NCBI GenBank assembly: GCA_016199215.1
Contig: JACQHB010000009.1
Coordinates: 4,905 to 68,904, forward strand
Source of the DNA: Candidatus Doudnabacteria bacterium
GTDB lineage: Bacteria; Patescibacteriota; Doudnabacteria; UBA920; O2-02-FULL-48-8
Length of the DNA stretch: 64,000 bases
Direction of reading: 5' to 3'
A program made the translations under genes and the position numbers. Below are positions 8,791 through 54,190 of the stretch, piece by piece. Within the stretch, counting starts at the first letter, position 1, and each line of letters opens with the position of its first letter. The notes below the pieces were generated by a model, which saw only the letters and a program-made list of their open reading frames with translations, did not search any database and was not told where the DNA came from.

Positions 8791-9919
8791 ATGGCTACTG
8801 GGATTGGGCTTGATCCTAGCCCTGCTCCCGACTTATTTAGTCAGATTTACAATCTTTGGTCTGCCGACCACGTTTCTGGAAGTTATTCTGGTAATCTTTT
8901 TGTTATCTGTCTTAGTCAGCCAATACAAACAAATCAGTTCTTTAAAAAAACTGGGGGCCTTAAACTCAGTCGTGCTGCTATTTGTGCTGTCGGGAATAAT
9001 TTCCACGCTTATTTCACCAGAACCGATCAAAGCCTTAGGTCAACTCAAGGCCCTTATCATTGAGCCTGTGCTGTTTTTTTATGCCTGCGCTCTGATCATC
9101 AAAAAAGAAAGCGACCTTAAAATCCCTTTGACGATGTTATTGTCATCGTCATTAATTATCAGTCTGTTCGGGCTTATCCAGCACCAAACACTTTTAGGCT
9201 TACCCTTAAGGTTCTGGGGGTTTGGGGAAGGCGTCAAAAGAATTGTCAGTGTGTTTGAATATCCCAACGCCTTAGCTTTATATCTTGGGCCTCTGCTTGC
9301 CTTTTTTCTTGCATTAATCTATTCCAAAAGCACATTAATCAACCGCAAGCTATTATTTTGGACAACGGGGATGGGATTGATCGCTCTGGTTCTTACCTTC
9401 TCCCGCGGCGCTTGGCTTGCGGTTTTGGCTGTTCTTGCGGTGCTTATTGGAAAAAAGTTTTCCTGGAAAATTGCGGGTGCGGTTTTGATAATCATTATTA
9501 TCGCCATTGTTTTTCTGCAGTCAGGCCAGCGTTTCTCCCTGTCTGACACTTCTTCACAGACCCGTATCCAACTATACCAGTATGCGTTAACCGCGGTTTT
9601 GGCAAATCCATTGTTGGGAAACGGGTTGCACGGATTTGAGGCCTTTGGCGTTTTGTATCCGCATAATATTTTCCTTAATTTCTGGCTGGAGTTGGGACTT
9701 TTGGGGATGCTTGCTTTCTTCGGGATTATAACTTTGAGTCTCAAACAATATAAAATTGCCCCGACTTCTATAAAGCTTGCGGCGGCGATGTTTTTACTGG
9801 CTGTGGTGGTGCACGGCCTGGTCGATGTCCCTTACTTCAAAAACGATTTGTCAATTTTGTTTTGGTTTATGATTTCAATTTTTTATCTTAGCAAAAACCC
9901 GGCCAGTGACCGGGTTTAA
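8765..9919 (+). CDS. O-antigen ligase (Wzy_C) family polytopic membrane protein
   Basis: Many TM helices and the conserved TFSRGAW motif of the O-antigen ligase / WaaL-like family. The start probably lies at a downstream Met (overlaps the PBP stop). Confidence 0.6.
   Translation: MSRPMPINKWLLGLGLILALLPTYLVRFTIFGLPTTFLEVILVIFLLSVLVSQYKQISSLKKLGALNSVVLLFVLSGIISTLISPEPIKALGQLKALIIEPVLFFYACALIIKKESDLKIPLTMLLSSSLIISLFGLIQHQTLLGLPLRFWGFGEGVKRIVSVFEYPNALALYLGPLLAFFLALIYSKSTLINRKLLFWTTGMGLIALVLTFSRGAWLAVLAVLAVLIGKKFSWKIAGAVLIIIIIAIVFLQSGQRFSLSDTSSQTRIQLYQYALTAVLANPLLGNGLHGFEAFGVLYPHNIFLNFWLELGLLGMLAFFGIITLSLKQYKIAPTSIKLAAAMFLLAVVVHGLVDVPYFKNDLSILFWFMISIFYLSKNPASDRV
9893..9917. terminator. hairpin (aacccggcc-agtga-ccgggtt) at the convergent ends of the O-antigen-ligase gene and jag
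   Basis: Inverted repeat seen in the sequence at the 3' ends of both genes. Confidence 0.4.
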
Positions 9920-10428
9920 GAATTTTCTATAAATTGGAAAGGCTCTTCGGATTTGGAGAGCCCTTTATATTTGATCACAATTCGTCGGTTAGGCTCACTG
10001 CCCATGCTTTCTGATTCGACGTCTGAAAAAAGCGAAAGGTAATCATGCACGATTTTCCGCTCAAACGACGGCATAATCGGCAAGCCCACGCTTCTTTTTG
10101 TTTGCCTGACTTGATGCGCCGCTTTCCTGGCCAACTCCTTCAAATAAATCATCCGTTTTTCCTTGTAGTCATCAATGTCGATGGCAAAAATAAAGTCAGA
10201 GTCCAAATCTTTTTTGACCGCTAGTCTCAAAAGGTGCTGGAGAGCTTCAAGGTTTGCCCCTTGTTTGCCTATCAAAAGCTGGGCATCGTGCGTTTTGATG
10301 TTAAATACGGTCCGGCCTTCTTCCATCCGTTCAAAAATCTGGCAATCGAACCCCATGCTGTTGAGAAGTCCTGTGATCTTGTTTTTGATAATTTCAGTAT
10401 TCTTATCGTCCATATTATTTAGACTCAA
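9916..10428 (-). CDS. jag: Jag/KhpB family RNA-binding protein (KH + R3H domains)
   Basis: Internal GKQGANLEALQHLLRL (KH-like) and C-terminal R3H-like sequence. Conserved position directly downstream of yidC. Confidence 0.8.
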   Translation of the reverse strand: MSLNNMDDKNTEIIKNKITGLLNSMGFDCQIFERMEEGRTVFNIKTHDAQLLIGKQGANLEALQHLLRLAVKKDLDSDFIFAIDIDDYKEKRMIYLKELARKAAHQVRQTKRSVGLPIMPSFERKIVHDYLSLFSDVESESMGSEPNRRIVIKYKGLSKSEEPFQFIENS

Positions 10429-28589: not shown

Positions 28590-28850
28590 TTATTTTTTAG
28601 AAACCAGTTTAGTCAATCTGGCCTTTAATCTCGAGGCCTTATTTTTATGAATCACATTCTTTTTGGCCGCTTTATCAAGGGCAGAGAAAGCTTGGTTTAA
28701 GGCTTTTTTTGCATCCTCGATTTTGCCAGAGGTTGCCAGTTTTTTTACCTGCTTGGTGGTTTTTTTTATCTTTTCGAGGACCGCAAGGTTTACTACTCTG
28801 CGCTTTAAACTTTGTCGTGCAGCTTTGATTGCGGATTTAGTATTTGGCAT
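28590..28850 (-). CDS. rpsT: 30S ribosomal protein S20
   Basis: MPNTKSAIKAARQSLKRRVVN... is a typical S20, 86 aa. Confidence 0.9.
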   Translation of the reverse strand: MPNTKSAIKAARQSLKRRVVNLAVLEKIKKTTKQVKKLATSGKIEDAKKALNQAFSALDKAAKKNVIHKNKASRLKARLTKLVSKK

Positions 28851-28938
28851 ATGGGAGTAAAAAGTAAAAGGTTAAAAGTTAAAAGATATTGACCAGAGCG
28901 ACACTTTGCCTGATCAGCCTAAAGATAATACCACGACC

Positions 28939-28967
28939 TTGACAAATGGTCAAAAAGGGAGTATATT
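28939..28967 (+). promoter_or_regulatory. consensus sigma70-type promoter upstream of the DGR target gene
   Basis: TTGACA (28939-28944), a 17-bp spacer, then TATATT (28962-28967), read directly. A strong RBS (AGGAGGA) lies 8 nt before the 29048 ATG. Confidence 0.6.
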
Positions 28968-29047
28968 ATATGGTCAAAATGAGAAGGTAGATTATCTCAT
29001 TTACCGAAGTCTGGCGGTTTCCAGGCTAACACCAGGAGGATGCGCCG

Positions 29048-29662
29048 ATGGCCAAAGCCATTGCCCCGTCCGTGTCAGTGGAACAGTCCGAATCGAAGAT
29101 CGCTGGTTTGCTCGATCAGCTCAAGGCGGTCATTCGTCACTCAGGTCTCAACGACGACCAGCTTCAGGCGATTCGCGACAGCGGCCGACTGCCGGTTGAT
29201 TTCGAACCGGTGTTTGCCAAACTCGCAGCCGTGGTCTGCAATGCGATCCGGCTGACGATCTCGACCGTGAAGGCCTTCGAGAAGCCGAGCTGGATGAAGC
29301 GTCTCGTTCGCGGCAACGACCCAGTCACGCCTGGCATCTACGAGTACACCTTCGAAGGATTCCTTCGCGAAGGTGAAGAGTCGGTCAAGGGCGATGAGAT
29401 GGTCGCTCGAGCCAAGGCGTCAGGTGCTTACTCGGGATTGCAGCACGCGCTGTACTTCCTGGACAACCAGCACCTCATTCCGGAGGAGTTCAGGGACAAG
29501 AAATACTTGATCTTTGCCGACACAGAGGCGCTCAACTCCAACGACCGCAGCGATGTGGCCTGCCTCGCGTGGGGCGGCCTCCAGTGGATTCTGTACTGGC
29601 GCTTGCTTGTGGATGACTTTAACCGGAACGATCTGCTCGTTCGCGCCCGCAAGGTCCAGTAG
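29048..29662 (+). CDS. DGR target (variable) protein, 204 aa, with the variable repeat at its C-terminus; no signal peptide and no recognisable domain
   Basis: Its last ~126 bp are repeated with adenine-specific differences ~500 bp downstream (the TR). The gene is visibly GC-rich relative to all flanking genes. Confidence 0.8.
   Translation: MAKAIAPSVSVEQSESKIAGLLDQLKAVIRHSGLNDDQLQAIRDSGRLPVDFEPVFAKLAAVVCNAIRLTISTVKAFEKPSWMKRLVRGNDPVTPGIYEYTFEGFLREGEESVKGDEMVARAKASGAYSGLQHALYFLDNQHLIPEEFRDKKYLIFADTEALNSNDRSDVACLAWGGLQWILYWRLLVDDFNRNDLLVRARKVQ
29527..29652 (+). repeat. DGR variable repeat (VR) with an IMH-like invariant 3' segment
   Basis: Aligns with the TR at 30029-30154, and 15 of 16 mismatches sit at TR adenines. 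The 3' 35 nt (gactttaaccggaacgatctgctcgttcgcgcccg) are identical in both copies. The VR ends 10 bp before the stop codon. Confidence 0.85.
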
Positions 29663-30028
29663 TCCTCGGCACCTTGGGTCCTTTGTTCTTGGACCCTTGG
29701 GTTCTTGGGAGCCTCACGATTTCGATTCAATTCGATTCGTGGGCTCCTTTTCATTTCCGCCTTCGTCAAGACTTCGGCGGACAGGTTGCTAATATGATAA
29801 AATTACTTTAGATAAATTTGAAAATATCTGCGAGTATTGCTTTCAGATTGTTTATCTCGCACTGTCAGAATGCCAGAGTGTCTTAAGTTTACTTAAGATA
29901 GAGTGCTATCTGACAAGAAGATTCCATAGGAACTTGGTGTATGGTATTAGAGGATTTGCAGGATCCCGAATTAAATACAGCCTTAAGAGTATTCGAGAGG
30001 TGGTGTTAACGGATGATACTGTGCACAT

Positions 30029-30154
30029 GGCGCTCAACTCCAACGACAACAGCAATGTGGCCTACCTCAAGTGGGACGGCAACCAGTGGATTCTGAACTG
30101 GAACTGGCTTGAGAATGACTTTAACCGGAACGATCTGCTCGTTCGCGCCCGAAA
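30029..30154 (+). other. DGR template repeat (TR), non-coding and rich in AAC/AAT codons in the VR frame
   Basis: See the VR entry. The TR contains aac or aat at every position that differs in the VR. The ORF-track ORF 29934-30251 is just this template read as protein. Confidence 0.85.
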
Positions 30155-30180
30155 CTTCCGTGGATACAAAAACTCCTCCC

Positions 30181-30510
30181 TTAATTGGGAGGAGTTTGTT
30201 TGCCGATTTGTTTTTGCCAGCCACCAAGTTGCCGGCCGACTTCGCCTATAACAACTGTCAATTCGGATAAAGTTTTGTCATCAACCGTTTTTAATTCAAT
30301 AGCTGTTTGAAGAAAGTATTTCAGCAAATCTAATTTAATACTCGCTTTTTTGAGAATTATTGATTTTTGTTCCTTTTCAGAATAGCCTGCTATCAAAATC
30401 AATTCTGTAAGCTCGATAAATAAATTTGTTATTTTTTCCCCTAAAGAATAACGAATAAGTCTTGGAATGCGTGGCAGATGGTTAATCCAGATTTTGAATG
30501 CTATCGACAA
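30181..30510 (-). CDS. avd: DGR accessory variability determinant (Avd-like four-helix-bundle protein)
   Basis: About 109 aa with the near-C-terminal ...ELTVVIGEVGRQLGGWQKQ... segment and the ELILIAGYS segment resembling the Avd / four-helix-bundle family. TTG start. It sits between the TR and the RT but on the opposite strand. Confidence 0.7.
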   Translation of the reverse strand: MSIAFKIWINHLPRIPRLIRYSLGEKITNLFIELTELILIAGYSEKEQKSIILKKASIKLDLLKYFLQTAIELKTVDDKTLSELTVVIGEVGRQLGGWQKQIGKQTPPN

Positions 30511-30552
30511 TTTCTGAATTATGGGCAGATTTAAAGTGTCGAAATTTCCGTT

Positions 30553-30562
30553 GGGGGGGGGG
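30553..30562. repeat. G10 homopolymeric tract at the 5' end of the RT gene
   Basis: ttgggggggggcg read directly. It lies in the RT 5' extension or promoter, depending on which start codon is real. Confidence 0.8.
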
Positions 30563-30578
30563 CGTATTAAATGTCATT

Positions 30579-31590
30579 ATGAAAATTAAGTTTAGTATTA
30601 ATTATCAAGAGCTAATATCAGTCGAGAACCTTTTTGCTGCATGGAAGGAGTTTATAAACGGTAAGCGAAGTAAGCCGGACGTCCAAAGATTTGCTCACGC
30701 TTTAATAGATAATATTCTACAGCTTCACGAGGATCTTGCCAACAAGACCTATAAGCATGGCGGTTATCATTGTTTTAATATCTCTGATCCTAAGCCTCGT
30801 AATATTAGCAAGGCGATTGTTCGTGATCGTTTATTACATCACGCGATTTATAGAAAATTCTATCCGTTTTTCGATAAGACCTTTATTGCTGATTCGTATT
30901 CCTGTCGAATTAATAAAGGAACTCATAAAGCTATTGATCGATTGTTAGGGATGTATTATAAGGTCAGTAAAAATAATCATAAGACTTGCTGGATATTAAA
31001 ATGCGATATTAGAAAATTTTTCGGCAGTATCGACCATAATATTTTGCTTAAGATTTTACAGTATTATATTCCCGATCAAGACATCCTCTGGTTGATGAAA
31101 AATATTATTGTCAGCTTTTCAACAAGTGAGAATAAGGGACTGCCGCTAGGCAATCTTACCTCGCAGCTGTTTGTGAACGTATACATGAATGAATTTGACC
31201 AGCGTAAAACATAAGCTTAAGGTCAAGAATTATATAAGGTACGCTGATGATTTTGTGATCCTATCGAAGGAAAGAAATGAATTGGTTAGTTTAATTGATA
31301 AGATTACCAAGTTTCTTAAGGACGAACTTGATTTAACCTTGCATCCGTATAAAATCAATATAAGCAATTTTGCGTTAGGAGTTGATTTTCTTGGTTGGGT
31401 TAATTTTTCAAAGCATAGAGTATTAAGAACTACAACCAAAAAGCACATGTTGAGGCGAATAGGCGAGCACCCAACAGCTGAGATGTTGCAGTCTTATTTA
31501 GGCTTATTGCAGCTTGGCAATACTAATAAGATTAAACAAGATCTCGTGAGTAAATATTGGTATTTGAACACACGAAAACTGGAATTGTAG
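30579..31590 (+). CDS. DGR-type reverse transcriptase, interrupted by a frameshift near 31200-31215 (pseudogene or sequencing error)
   Basis: RT motifs in order: ...CFNISDPKPRNISKAIVRDRLLHHAIY..., ...ILKCDIRKFFGSIDH..., DGR-characteristic GLPLGNLTSQLFVNVYMNEFD, then in the +1 frame VKHKLKVKNYIRYADDFVILS (YADD box) and thumb. The two ORF-track ORFs 30498-31214 and 31189-31590 are the two halves. Confidence 0.85.
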
Positions 31591-31611
31591 AAAAACTGAG
31601 ATTTGACAAAC

Positions 31612-31640
31612 GGGAACAATAGTGGTAAAAAATAAATGAG
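31612..31640 (+). promoter_or_regulatory. sigma70-like promoter upstream of the large surface-protein gene
   Basis: TTGACA, a 17-bp spacer, then TAAAAA(AT), read directly. Followed by a 7-bp hairpin (ttaacct/aggttaa) in the leader. Confidence 0.45.
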
Positions 31641-31713
31641 AGTTAACCTTGAAAGATTAGGTTAAATCAGAACAACAGAGAGACCAAAAAGCCCAAAACG
31701 CAGGCGGTGGAGC

Positions 31714-34700
31714 TTGCGCTTTTTTAATCCAAAAATTTTGAGCAAGAGGAAGAAAATTTTTTTGGCATCAACCCTTGTTTTACTGGGGCTTTTGGTTGCG
31801 GTCTTATTCTTGATCGATCGTCAAACAGATAATTCTTATAAGGGGGAGGTTGCTGGTATAAATATTGAAAGCCCTAAAATTGAGCAAATCGAGCAATTTG
31901 AAACAACCCACCAAGATGCTGCTACTGACGATCTGACCTCAAGCAGTATCGACTCTGCTCCTCAACCAGTAATTTTTTCCCCGCCATCCCCAGTTTTTTC
32001 GTCTCCTTCATTTCAACTCATCCCGGAGCAGGCCTCTACGGACGAATCTCCTCCACAAGCTGTTTCTGCTCCAGTTTCCTCTTCACCTCCAAATCCATTG
32101 CCTGTGTGGGGTGGGGTTAGTAGCGGAAGTAATCCGGAAGTACCAGCGGCTCCGCTTGTTTTGGACTCAACTCCTCCCAATCCTCCAACTGTTTCAACCC
32201 CAATTGCCAATTCAACTGTTACAGACGGTTCTCAAACTATTTCCGGGACCAAGACTTCCGATTCGGTTTTGGTTTGGGTTAATTCAGAATCAACCGGGGT
32301 CACTTATCCAAGCTCAACTACCTGGGAAAAAACAGTCGATTTGGCTTTTGGTATAAATACTTTTTCCATAACTTCCACTGACGGCGCTGGCAATCAAAGT
32401 GAAGCTGTCTCATATTCCATAAGTTTGGATAATCAAGGTCCGGACGTGCCAGTCGTAATTTCACCCGCCAATAATTTCACTTTTTATTCTGAAAATGATT
32501 ATGACCAAGACACACCGGGCATGCAGGTCTTATTGTTGGGGACCAAGACAGCTGACGCAAGTTTGGTCTTGATAAACTCTGCAGGTGTAATTTATCCCAG
32601 CAGTACGAGTTGGCAGAAAACAATCACCCTTAGCACGGGGATTAATAGTTTTAGCTTGCTGGCAAAAGATGAGTTTGGCAATGAAAGCCCTTCCGTATCC
32701 CATACAGTAAGCTATGACGACTCGCCTCTGCCTGATGCTCCCACAGTTACTTCTCACTCAAACAATGCTACGGTTTATCCAGAAAACGATTTAGAGGCTG
32801 ATGCCGGCATGCAAATTTTATTTTCCGGGACCAAGCCTCCTTCTGCCGCGACTGTTCAAATAAACGGAAGTTCCTCTGGGGTTTTGTATCCAACTGATAC
32901 TACCTGGCAAAAAACCATTACTCTTTCATCTGGCGCAAACAGTTTTACGCTAAAGTCCGTAACCAGCGCAAATCGAGAAAGTTCTTCCACGTCCCACACG
33001 GTTAACTATAATAGCACGCCGCTTCCAGAGATTGACTTAATTTTTAGCAGCCACCGGCCGACTTCATTGACCATTCCAGTATCCTGGTCGTCAACCACAC
33101 CGGGGGTCGCTAGTTTTGATGTAGAGTATAAGACAGGCAATGGAAGTTTTGTCTCCTGGAAATCAGCCACAACCGCAATCTCTGATAATTTTTATGCAAC
33201 CCAAGATCGAACCACTTATACTTTCCGGGCGAGGTCCAGATCTACTCGAATCGGGGATTGGGAGGAACAATCAACAGAAATTTTCCTTCAAGCAGTGATT
33301 ATTAATGAAATTGCTTGGCCGGGGACTGATGCTTCCAGCAATGACGAATGGATTGAGCTTTACAACAATACGAACTCGGCAATTAGCCTGGCTGGCTGGA
33401 AATTAACGACATTGTCAGGCTCCATTAACACGACCTTATCAGGGACAATAAGCGCCAAGGGATATTATCTTTTGGAACGAACTGACGATACAACAATTGA
33501 CAGTTTGGCAGCAGATAAAATTTATACAGGTTACTTGGATAATGGAGGTGATCGGATTAATTTGATCAATGACGAAAACAGGACAATCGATGTTGTAGAC
33601 ATGTCCTCAACCGGATGGACCGCTGGTACTGTTGCTGGTAAGAAAACAGCGGAACGAATAAATCCCAATCTATCTTCTTTTGCATCCAACAATTTCGCGA
33701 CCTCTACTGCCACAAGTTCTGAAACAGATTCAGAAGACAATCCTATCAAAGGAACGCCGAAGGCAGTTAACAGCGTGTTGAATGCCAGTTTGGCTGCCGC
33801 AACCCCGATTGTCTATGATACTGCCATAAATCGGGACACGGTTTTTGATGAGCTTGGGGAAATTTACAAAACTCAAGGAGCAGGGTTAACTCTTTCTGCC
33901 GATACGACGTTAGTGGTACGACCCGGAGTGGCAATTCTTGCCAATTCTCAAATCCAAATCAATGGCAAACTTAGCGTGGTCGGAACAGGCTCCTCCAACG
34001 CGGTCTTCACCTCTTACAGAGATTCAAATTATGGCGGAGCTGGTGGAGCAAATCCAGGCGATTGGACCGGAATCAAATTCAATGCGGGCGCTTCAAGTCT
34101 TTCAAGCATTGATTATGCCAAAATAATTTACGCTGGAAGCGCGGGCGGCATGAGTGGGGGAATAATCGTGAATGGTTCCAATCCGACAATAACGAATTCC
34201 ATAATAGAAAGAAGTATTTACGGCGCCACTGTCCTTTCCGGTAACCCAACCATTTCCAACAACACAATGCAGAACAATGATGCGACTGGCCTGCGAATCG
34301 CTGGCGGTAGTGCGGTCATCAACAACAATAGCAGTTTGGCAAACCAATATGGGGCGATTATCGAAGGCGGCGGCCCGACCCTGACCAGCAATGTTTTTGA
34401 CAACAATACTTCTGAAGCGATTCAATGGTACTTCCTAAGTTCAACCCTCGCTGGATCCGGCAATACAGCTTCGGGCAACCCGAAGAATGCCATTGAACTT
34501 GCCGGCGGATCAAACACCGGAGGAAACCATACTTTTGTCAATCTTGGTTTGGGTTATTCGGTTAACAGCTTAACAGTGCGGGCATCCGATACTTTAACTA
34601 TTAATCCAGGTACGATAATCAAATTCTCAAGTGGCATGACCGTAAATGGTAAATTGATTGCAGTTGGTACTGCTGGCAATCGCATTGTGTTTACTTCTTC

Positions 34701-35109
34701 CACTGACCCGGGTGTACCAGTCCCAGGGCAATGGGGAAATGTGAATTTAACCGCTTCTTCATCAGTAGAAACCCAAATTGCTTACGCGGATTTCAAAAAC
34801 GGCACCGGTCTTTCCGGCACCACAGGGGCTTTGTATGTTGCAGTCAACGGCCTAAGTTTTGACTACCTTAATTTTGACGGCAACGGCTTGGGTTTGTTTG
34901 TGAACAGTTCAAATATAAGCATCAGTCAAAGCATGTTTAACAATAATCCCAGCGGCGGTTTGATCAACAATACCAGCAATCTTGTTAATGCCGAAAATAA
35001 TTACTGGGGCAATGCCAGCGGGCCAAGACACAGTTCCAACCCCGGTGGAACCGGAGACAATGTCAGCGATAATATTGATTTTGACCCGTTTCTAACGGAA
35101 GCTCCCTAA
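31714..35109 (+). CDS. large cell-surface protein with an N-terminal TM anchor, Pro/Ser-rich linker, three Ig-like repeats, a lamin-tail domain (LTD) and parallel beta-helix repeats
   Basis: TTG start. Three ~95-aa tandem repeats (...[34 protein letters not shown]...). LTD signature [27 protein letters not shown]...LAGWKL. Then repeated NNxxxG beta-helix units (pectate-lyase-like). Confidence 0.7.
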
Positions 35110-53917: not shown

Positions 53918-53992
53918 GGCCCTATCGTCTAACGGTTAGGACAGCGGGTTTTCAGTCCGCTAATCTGGGTTCGATTCCCAGTAGGGTCACCA
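53918..53992 (+). tRNA. tRNA-Glu(UUC): tRNA-Glu (anticodon UUC), CCA encoded
   Basis: Hand-folded cloverleaf: acceptor GGCCCTA/TAGGGTC, D-arm GTCT..GGAC, anticodon stem GCGGG/TCCGC with loop TTTTCAG (anticodon TTC), T-arm CTGGG-TTCGATT-CCCAG, discriminator A, then CCA. Confidence 0.8.
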
Positions 53993-54190
53993 AGAATTTA
54001 AAAAAGCTTAGTTAAGGGAATCGAACGGGTTGAAGCGAGACGAGGCATCAGCCGAAGTCGAGCGATCGATTTTGATTAAGTATCAAAATCGCAACCCACG
54101 ACACGATCACGCCAGTGATCGTTGAAGATTCCCAGTAGGGTCACCAAAGAATTTAGAAAAGCTTAGTTAAGGGAATCGAACGGGTTGAAG
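53973..54190 (+). repeat. two ~63-bp direct repeats (53973-54035 and 54127-54190, ~97% identical), each containing the tRNA-Glu 3' end (GATTCCCAGTAGGGTCACCA) plus ~45 bp of downstream sequence
   Basis: Copies aligned by eye; they differ by one extra A and one A/G. The spacer between them contains a perfect 9-bp hairpin gattttgat-taagt-atcaaaatc. Confidence 0.8.

Follow-up and report, generated by a model that had tools for sequence, protein, structure and literature searches.

Wu et al. 2018 defined architecture B3 of diversity-generating retroelements (DGRs) as TR-(avd)-RT, that is, a template repeat (TR), an avd gene on the reverse strand and a reverse transcriptase (RT) gene, and found it in 90% of their DGRs of candidate phyla radiation bacteria (CPR; PMC5758913). 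An inverted avd is therefore the norm in this group. The targets of the CPR clade typically carry no recognisable domains (Roux et al. 2021, PMC8144416). Stem-loops just downstream of TRs that bind Avd have been reported across DGRs, including those of the CPR (preprint 10.1101/2023.10.23.563531). In the DGR of Bordetella phage BPP-1, the essential RNA besides the TR consists of 20 nt upstream of it and a 140-nt downstream spacer that primes synthesis. Here we describe an element at positions 28939-31590 of a 64-kb stretch of DNA (64,000 nucleotides, "the window") from a metagenome-assembled genome (MAG) of Candidatus Doudnabacteria. We are highly confident that this element is a chromosomal DGR of the CPR type with architecture B3, whose RT gene is broken as assembled.

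DGRs with small unannotated targets, this layout and CPR hosts are already known, and as a DGR the element adds little. The most useful lead it provides is a structured leader RNA on the 5' side of the TR. A preliminary description, made by reading the letters, had called the DGR complete. The target with its variable region (VR), the TR, the Avd and the RT motifs are indeed found where it placed them, but completeness fails because the RT gene is frameshifted as assembled. That the window holds a DGR in a CPR genome is borne out by an adenine-specific TR/VR pair, by an Avd and by an RT that is nearest, among solved structures in the Protein Data Bank (PDB), to the DGR RT of the Bordetella phage.

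Positions 29527-29657 and 30029-30159 form the sole long imperfect direct repeat of such kind in the window. Across its 124-nt core (29527-29650 in the VR, 30029-30152 in the TR) there are 16 mismatches, 15 of which have an A in the TR (hypergeometric P = 9.7e-10, with 32 A in the 124-nt TR). The only non-adenine change leads from TR G30106 to VR T29604 (TGG to TTG, Trp to Leu) and falls on a conserved Trp position. Fourteen of the 15 adenine changes affect the first or second position of a codon in the 204-aa open reading frame (ORF) of the target; the fifteenth is synonymous (CGA to CGC). Our recount finds the same mismatches as the preliminary description, whose counts and repeat coordinates are therefore correct. 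The abundance of AAC and AAT codons it noted in the TR also holds: read in the VR frame, the TR contains 10 AAY codons, and about 2e18 protein variants could be encoded.

The same bias recurs in related cassettes, which we number L001 to L017. All TR/VR mismatches are at TR adenines in L001 (26/26), L005 (15/15) and L014 (16/16). Across 11 close members of the target family, entropy amounts to 2.01 bits at VR codons whose TR counterpart has an A as its first or second base. The other VR codons reach 0.40 bits (Mann-Whitney P = 4e-8), and the rest of the protein 0.78 bits. This contrast, which serves as the closest proxy for the within-population variation that the preliminary description had asked to test, supports DGR-driven diversification of the family.

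One could also argue that the element is not a DGR, and that a retron, a group II intron or a defence-associated RT happens to lie beside an ordinary duplicated gene fragment. The RT does give partial matches to models of such enzymes (group II 142 bits, Drt3a 75 bits, retron St85 61 bits, as well as UG/DRT models). However, the cut-offs are far above those scores (300 for group II TIGR04416, 235 for retron St85), and the best PADLOC match is a generic RT model. Rfam searches of 28800-31700 at E <= 1 gave no group II intron match and no retron RNA family. When the frame is repaired, the resulting 337-aa RT has BPP-1 bRT as its best PDB match (8ub7_A, E = 8.6e-38, 134 bits), whereas retron-type and group II RTs in the PDB reach at most 75 bits. 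By these PDB scores, the RT is nearer to DGR enzymes than to retrons or group II introns, as had been proposed. It also contains LGNLTSQ, which corresponds to motif 4 of the DGR clade ([LIV]GxxxSQ). About 8000 database proteins match the RT at E <= 1e-40, and the best of them are 60-73% identical and mostly from Patescibacteria. Ordinary divergence of duplicates does not produce adenine biases of 15/16, 26/26, 15/15 and 16/16. The adenine-specific pattern therefore already refutes the idea that this is something other than a DGR, and we regard its probability as negligible.

The presence of an Avd points in the same direction. Avd occurs in most DGRs, although not in all of them. The ORF of about 109 aa that the preliminary description had called Avd-like matches the PF22296 family above its cut-off (Table 1) and lies on the minus strand, which had not been stated. 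Its score against the NCBIfam model NF033474 (DivGenRetAVD) is 59 bits, under the cut-off of 80. Position and strand of avd are the same in L001, L005, L010, L014 and L015. Neither the Avd nor the target of the window had a match when looked up by exact sequence.

The RT gene departs from the intact form. Both motifs recorded in the preliminary description, GLPLGNLTSQ and the YADD box, are present, but they lie in different frames, and the frameshift between them had been missed. One ORF (30498-31214) holds the fingers and GLPLGNLTSQ and stops three codons past EFDQ. A second ORF (31189-31590) holds YADD and the thumb in another frame. Compared to the intact RT of L001, 2 nt of the Phe codon in EFDQFVKH are missing; the deletion is a departure from all intact relatives, and the RT's relatives, about 8000 in number, are single-chain proteins some 330 aa long. 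A tblastn search with the L001 RT gives the same picture, with residues 1-204 at 30579-31202 in frame 3 and residues 206-317 at 31204-31551 in frame 1, and the Pfam RVT_1 match is likewise split (profile positions 8-139 and 141-203). The 2-nt deletion falls between motif 4 and YADD, and therefore no full-length RT can be translated as assembled. We think it probable that the deletion is real and that it inactivated the RT recently.

An alternative is that the DGR is fully functional: the 2-nt gap would have arisen by a mistake in the assembly or the consensus, or would belong to a minority variant in a population whose RT is intact. The state of the cassette would fit this explanation. Conservation extends to the TR, the leader, the two hairpins, avd, the poly-G tract and the promoter of the target, only one non-adenine mismatch between VR and TR has accumulated, and the RT fragments contain no further stops, both halves being 60-68% identical to the L001 RT. 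Assembly indels, however, concentrate in homopolymers, and this deletion lies outside any homopolymer. The NCBI annotation of this contig carries the same 238-aa RT fragment (P0185, HY336_01895). Moreover, other members of the cassette family decay independently. On balance we consider an intact RT unlikely.

It is also conceivable that the RT is expressed despite the frameshift, either by +1 slippage on an A-run (CGT AAA ACA to ...AAA CAT...) or as an enzyme of two polypeptides. After a +1 slip on AAA-A, translation would be back in the YADD frame with no other alteration than FVK to RK, and an ATG at 31189 is available to start the second ORF. Against this, intact L001 has no such arrangement, and there is neither a stimulatory stop codon nor a Shine-Dalgarno-like element at the site. 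Programmed +1 frameshifting was judged unlikely. The listed relatives of the RT are single chains of about 330 aa, and we know of no split DGR RTs. We regard expression across the frameshift as very improbable.

If the inactivation is real, as we prefer to read it, then the VR preserves the outcome of earlier diversification in frozen form, unless another RT encoded elsewhere in the genome acts in trans. A tblastn search with the L001 RT revealed no second RT in the window, which is part of a contig of 84.5 kb.

Several points weigh against our view of the element. The window covers 64 of the 84.5 kb of the contig, and a second DGR RT encoded elsewhere in the genome may act in trans. Both the deletion and the state of the VR are read from the assembled sequence alone. 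Only a single difference between VR and TR is not at an adenine, and the inactivation is therefore either very recent or not real. Finally, what we propose for architecture B3 on priming site, RNA ends and binding by Avd is drawn from analogy.

The related loci provide a context for the broken RT. L001 has the same layout as the window with an intact RT, and the cassette is fully intact. L015 has the leader, the TR, avd and an intact RT. In L010 the cassette is present, and its VR lacks 39 nt at the 3' end (752-845). In L002/L003 the TR ends after 36 nt and is fused into the antisense avd (8949-8984), and there is a stop in the RT (9675-10262). L004, L011 and the P0009 contig are short and have the target but neither a TR nor an RT, which makes their targets either remote ones or orphans. 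L005, from Saccharibacteria, has a divergent target and an uninterrupted RT ORF, and was the sole return of a contig scan with the target alignment. L014, from another Doudnabacteria MAG, has an unrelated target and an uninterrupted RT ORF. The relatives of the cassette decay independently and in different ways. The set of loci offers a clean example of DGR decay, with L002 and L010 disabled and L001 intact.

Table 1. Features of the DGR and its counterparts in related loci. Positions are those of the window unless a locus is named.
Feature	Position	Strand	Remarks
Putative promoter, sigma-70-like (TTGACA, 17 nt, TATATT)	28939-28967	+	Consensus scan 11/12
Target (variable-protein) gene, 204 aa, HY336_01885	29048-29662	+	Predicted three-helix N-terminus, then C-type-lectin-fold domain (~65-204)
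Variable region (VR)	29527-29652	+	Codons 161-202 of target; mismatches to TR
Inverted repeat GGGTCC-N9-GGACCC	29676-29696		14 nt past target stop; fold -16.5 kcal/mol, z -2.2
Likely intrinsic terminator of target	29707-29753	+	Strong hairpin then TTTTC; fold -26.1 kcal/mol, z -5.5
Extended -10-like element TGaTAAAAT	29795-29803	+	Candidate promoter of TR RNA
Structured non-coding leader	29810-30026	+	Directly 5' of TR; core 29937-30026
Leader core helices	A 29937-29948 / 30015-30026; hairpin B 29952-29966; helix C 29975-30006	+	12-bp helix A encloses B and C; covariation
Template repeat (TR)	30029-30154	+	Outside any conserved ORF; reads ALNSNDNSNVAYLKWDGNQWILNWNWLENDFNRNDLLVRAR in VR frame
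11-bp hairpin, T-runs on both strands	30170-30197		16 nt past TR, overlaps avd stop; -22.3 kcal/mol, z -5.2
avd, 109 aa	30181-30510	-	PF22296 bAvd, E 2.3e-13, 51 bits (cut-off 40)
G10 homopolymer	30553-30562		In ~70-nt divergent avd/RT intergenic region, 16 nt before RT ATG
RT N-terminal part, HY336_01895	30579-31214	+	Fingers and palm motifs to GLPLGNLTSQ; stop TAA 31212-31214
RT frameshift site	31203 (31202/31203)	+	Window GACCAG-C-GTAAAACAT, L001 GACCAA-TTT-GTTAAGCAT (DNA alignment)
RT C-terminal part	31204-31590	+	YADD box and thumb; +1 frame
Core order in window	TR 30029-30154; avd 30181-30510; RT 30579-31590	+; -; +	Target upstream; fits B3
Leader in related loci	L001 8034-8134; L010 1093-1193; L015 275-376; L002 8850-8951; L005 5724-5827; L014 3361-3477; L016 2405-2506; L017 2350-2463		
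G9-G11 tract in related loci	L001 8653-8661; L002 9271-9279; L010 1709-1719; L015 898-907; L005 6309-6318; L014 3968-3978		

The leader was recognised by comparison between loci. Between the target terminator and the TR, conservation between the window and L001 is above that of avd. An RNAalifold consensus of four loci contains 73 pairs, of which 22 have changed on both sides. Column shuffles give 9.6 +/- 2.1 such pairs, and slid controls 1-9. When the core is aligned across nine loci, 95.6% of the cells of its 28 pairs are paired. Of these pairs, 18 have changed on both sides, a number that averages 9.3 +/- 1.8 in shuffles and does not exceed 9 in slid controls. Folding single sequences yields the same shape. 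The core is preceded by a near-invariant ACUUGGU (ACUCGGU in L014), and a conserved junction resembles AAAUAAAAUACAG. The leader core is kept in L005 and L014, whose targets are different. It is also kept in two DGRs from a viral collection, whose RTs are only about 57% identical.

Searches of Rfam with the leader found no family; the lone match, to IMES-1, scored 19.8 bits against a gathering score of 81, which is noise. A scan of metagenomes with a leader pattern returned the known L003 contig and three loci without further similarity, and these three were set aside as chance matches. The candidate promoter upstream of the leader reads TGnTAAAAT, or a close variant, in six aligned loci; this was read by eye from the alignment and was not called by the consensus scan. 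A possible long-range duplex between the invariant AACUUGGUG of the leader (29931-29939) and CACCAAGUU (30222-30230, antisense of avd GGW codons) was considered as a counterpart of the stop duplex of BPP-1. The consensus fold contains it, and L001, L010 and L016 are compatible with it, but in L014 and L017 the pairing is lost with no compensating change, and therefore we do not claim this helix.

On the other side of the TR, a hairpin of different sequence stands at the same place in L001, L010, L015, L005 and L014. The window's hairpin (Table 1) fits a bidirectional terminator, a member of the Avd-binding stem-loop class, or both, if the analogy with other DGRs holds.

How such an element would work can be sketched by analogy with phage BPP-1, from which we infer the transcript ends, the ribonucleoprotein and the homing step. 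An RNA of about 390 nt would be transcribed from about position 29810 and comprise the structured leader, the 124-nt TR and the 3' hairpin. A complex of RT and Avd would bind this leader-TR RNA, and the RT would copy the TR into cDNA, misincorporating opposite adenines. The cDNA would then replace the VR at the 3' end of the target gene. In this way up to 20 codons could be randomised on the surface of a C-type-lectin fold, with about 2e18 proteins within reach.

The target gene has putative expression signals of its own. AGGAGG lies 8 nt upstream of the target ATG, and the segment 28938-28985, around the putative promoter, is 81-91% identical in L010 and L004. None of 200 shuffles was as stable as the hairpin of the likely terminator, which is kept in L001, L002, L010, L011 and L015.

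For the protein itself, a structure prediction had been suggested as a check. The C-terminal 140 residues were modelled as a C-type-lectin fold with a predicted local distance difference test (pLDDT) of 96-98. The target is thus predicted to be a small variable protein with a C-type-lectin (CLec) fold behind three helices, and no signal peptide is evident in its sequence. It is identical to the annotated protein HY336_01885. The preliminary description had presented it as small, without signal peptide, without a recognisable domain and new. Small size and the lack of a signal peptide hold, but the protein has a predicted lectin fold and falls into a large superfamily.

Close homologues of the target are few, with only 11 more among 5.8 billion clustered proteins. 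The alignment of these 12 sequences is conserved except for the last 40 residues. The family profile matches 1000 or more representative clusters at E <= 1e-3, and 251 remain at E <= 1e-10. Proteins of 120-200 aa that have the C-terminal ~100 residues in common make up most of these matches. Pfam searches gave no match for the target or for 48 members of the superfamily (49 proteins sampled). The target has no match in NCBIfam or PADLOC, and a profile search of the target family against PDB sequences found none. By its profile matches, the target is a member of a large superfamily for which Pfam has no entry. The lectin-fold assignment matters because it now extends to a large Pfam-less family of small variable proteins.

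Where the VR ends is a more delicate question. The preliminary description held that the 3' 35 nt are invariant, as in an initiation of mutagenic homing (IMH) region. In the window, the 7 TR adenines before the terminal one (29613-29649, within the final 38 nt of the VR) are indeed unmutated, versus 14 of 24 mutated upstream (Fisher P = 0.009). However, L001 mutates adenines in the same stretch, and the family varies at residues 188-195. The 35-nt block is therefore not invariant, and it is best read as part of the VR and not as an IMH. The unmutated adenines are peculiar to the window copy and could reflect partial-length conversion, selection or chance. VR and TR share the GC-rich end GCTCGTTCGCGCCCG and diverge beyond it, and it is this end, together with the inverted repeat that follows, that resembles the arrangement in BPP-1.

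Past the target stop, the inverted repeat at 29676-29696 has changed in both arms together (GGATCC/GGATCC in L001, GGGCCC/GGGCCC in L002). It has decayed in L004, where the target stands alone. On the model of BPP-1, which is the basis for a role of hairpins or cruciforms in homing (PMC3240598), we infer that it is a candidate for a homing-assisting hairpin or cruciform downstream of the IMH.

A second conserved feature is a poly-G tract between the divergent starts of avd and the RT. In the window, its G10 is the sole run of G or C of at least 8. Tracts of G9-G11 occur at this place in 7/7 RT-bearing loci of the subclade and are the sole runs of at least 9 in 128.7 kb. In most loci a -10-like hexamer follows just past the tract. 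The tract is absent from eight more distant DGRs on viral contigs. As a hypothesis only, the tract might be a promoter-spacer switch that works by slipped-strand changes.

Base composition sets the target apart from its neighbours. The window contains 37 ORFs that reach 200 aa, with a mean G+C content at third codon positions (GC3) of 0.50 (sd 0.07); the target has the highest value among them, 0.755, and the RT the lowest, 0.37. In AT-rich CPR genomes, target GC3 is 0.75-0.86 versus 0.30-0.46 for the adjacent RT and avd. The contrast recurs in L001, L004, L005, L010 and L011, as well as in L014, whose target is unrelated. In L002, whose host has 58% GC, the GC3 of the RT rises to 0.66 and that of the target is 0.81. 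RT composition tracks the host and target composition does not. Avoidance of adenine was considered as the cause of the GC-rich target; T is depleted at third positions as much as A, and adenine avoidance is therefore not the explanation of the GC3 excess. Among the eight more distant DGRs, only three have a GC3 excess.

One might combine these features into a single picture, in which DGRs of the CPR type (B3) use a rearranged DGR RNA. The 5' leader, with its three-helix core, ACUUGGU and AAAUAAAAUACAG junction, would be a scaffold that binds RT and Avd and positions the template, its counterpart in BPP-1 being the 140-nt 3' spacer; the poly-G tract in the divergent promoter of avd and RT would switch diversification on and off by slipped-strand changes; and the persistent GC3 excess of the target would reflect a homing constraint. 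We offer this joint reading tentatively and think it somewhat improbable as a whole. The observations behind it reach only as far as the leader structure and the poly-G tract, which exist and are conserved. The covariation-supported RNA next to the TR gives an experimental handle on the priming and control of cDNA synthesis in the dominant and unstudied CPR DGRs.

Two other observations concern the surroundings. Directly downstream of the DGR, positions 31714-35109 encode a protein of 1131 aa that has a hydrophobic segment at its N-terminus and also contains glucodextranase-B-like repeats, a lamin-tail domain and repeats of the right-handed beta-helix type. It is likely a large surface protein. 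The repeat search of the window found no VR-like copy of the TR in its gene. Farther away, the last ~20 nt of a tRNA-Glu(UUC) gene (53918-53992), together with ~45 nt downstream, recur 154 nt on. The two copies (53973-54035 and 54127-54190, within 53918-54190) are up to 98% identical, and the duplication looks like an att-type remnant of an integrated or excised element.

Compared to the CPR DGRs described so far (B3, PMC5758913; clade 2, Roux et al. 2021, PMC8144416), the element has the same order of TR, reverse avd and RT with the target upstream. The targets are alike as well: they are small, lack signal peptides, transmembrane segments and annotated domains, and carry the VR at the C-terminus. 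Unlike CPR DGRs in general, the window's RT is frameshifted and its close target family is rare. The two papers make no mention of a 5' leader, a poly-G tract or a GC3 excess of the target.

With BPP-1 (mtd - avd - TR - brt) the element shares adenine-specific transfer from TR to VR, an RT of the same clade, an Avd and a variable protein of the CLec fold. In both systems, a GC-rich end of the VR is followed by an inverted repeat, and a stem-loop lies just past the TR. The differences concern layout and RNA. The window's avd is inverted and sits between TR and RT. On the 3' side, the distance between TR and hairpin is only about 45 nt, and the large conserved structure is found upstream instead. 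Furthermore, the target is small and cytoplasmic-looking and is not a phage tail fibre, and the element is chromosomal with no phage genes nearby.

The likeness extends to the variable proteins themselves. In the predicted fold, residues ~65-204 of the target match the CTLD/FGE-like domains of Treponema TvpA (2y3c) and Mtd (1yu0). As in these proteins, the variable residues would be placed in strands and loops of the C-terminus, the last of them a strand of the LVRAR type.

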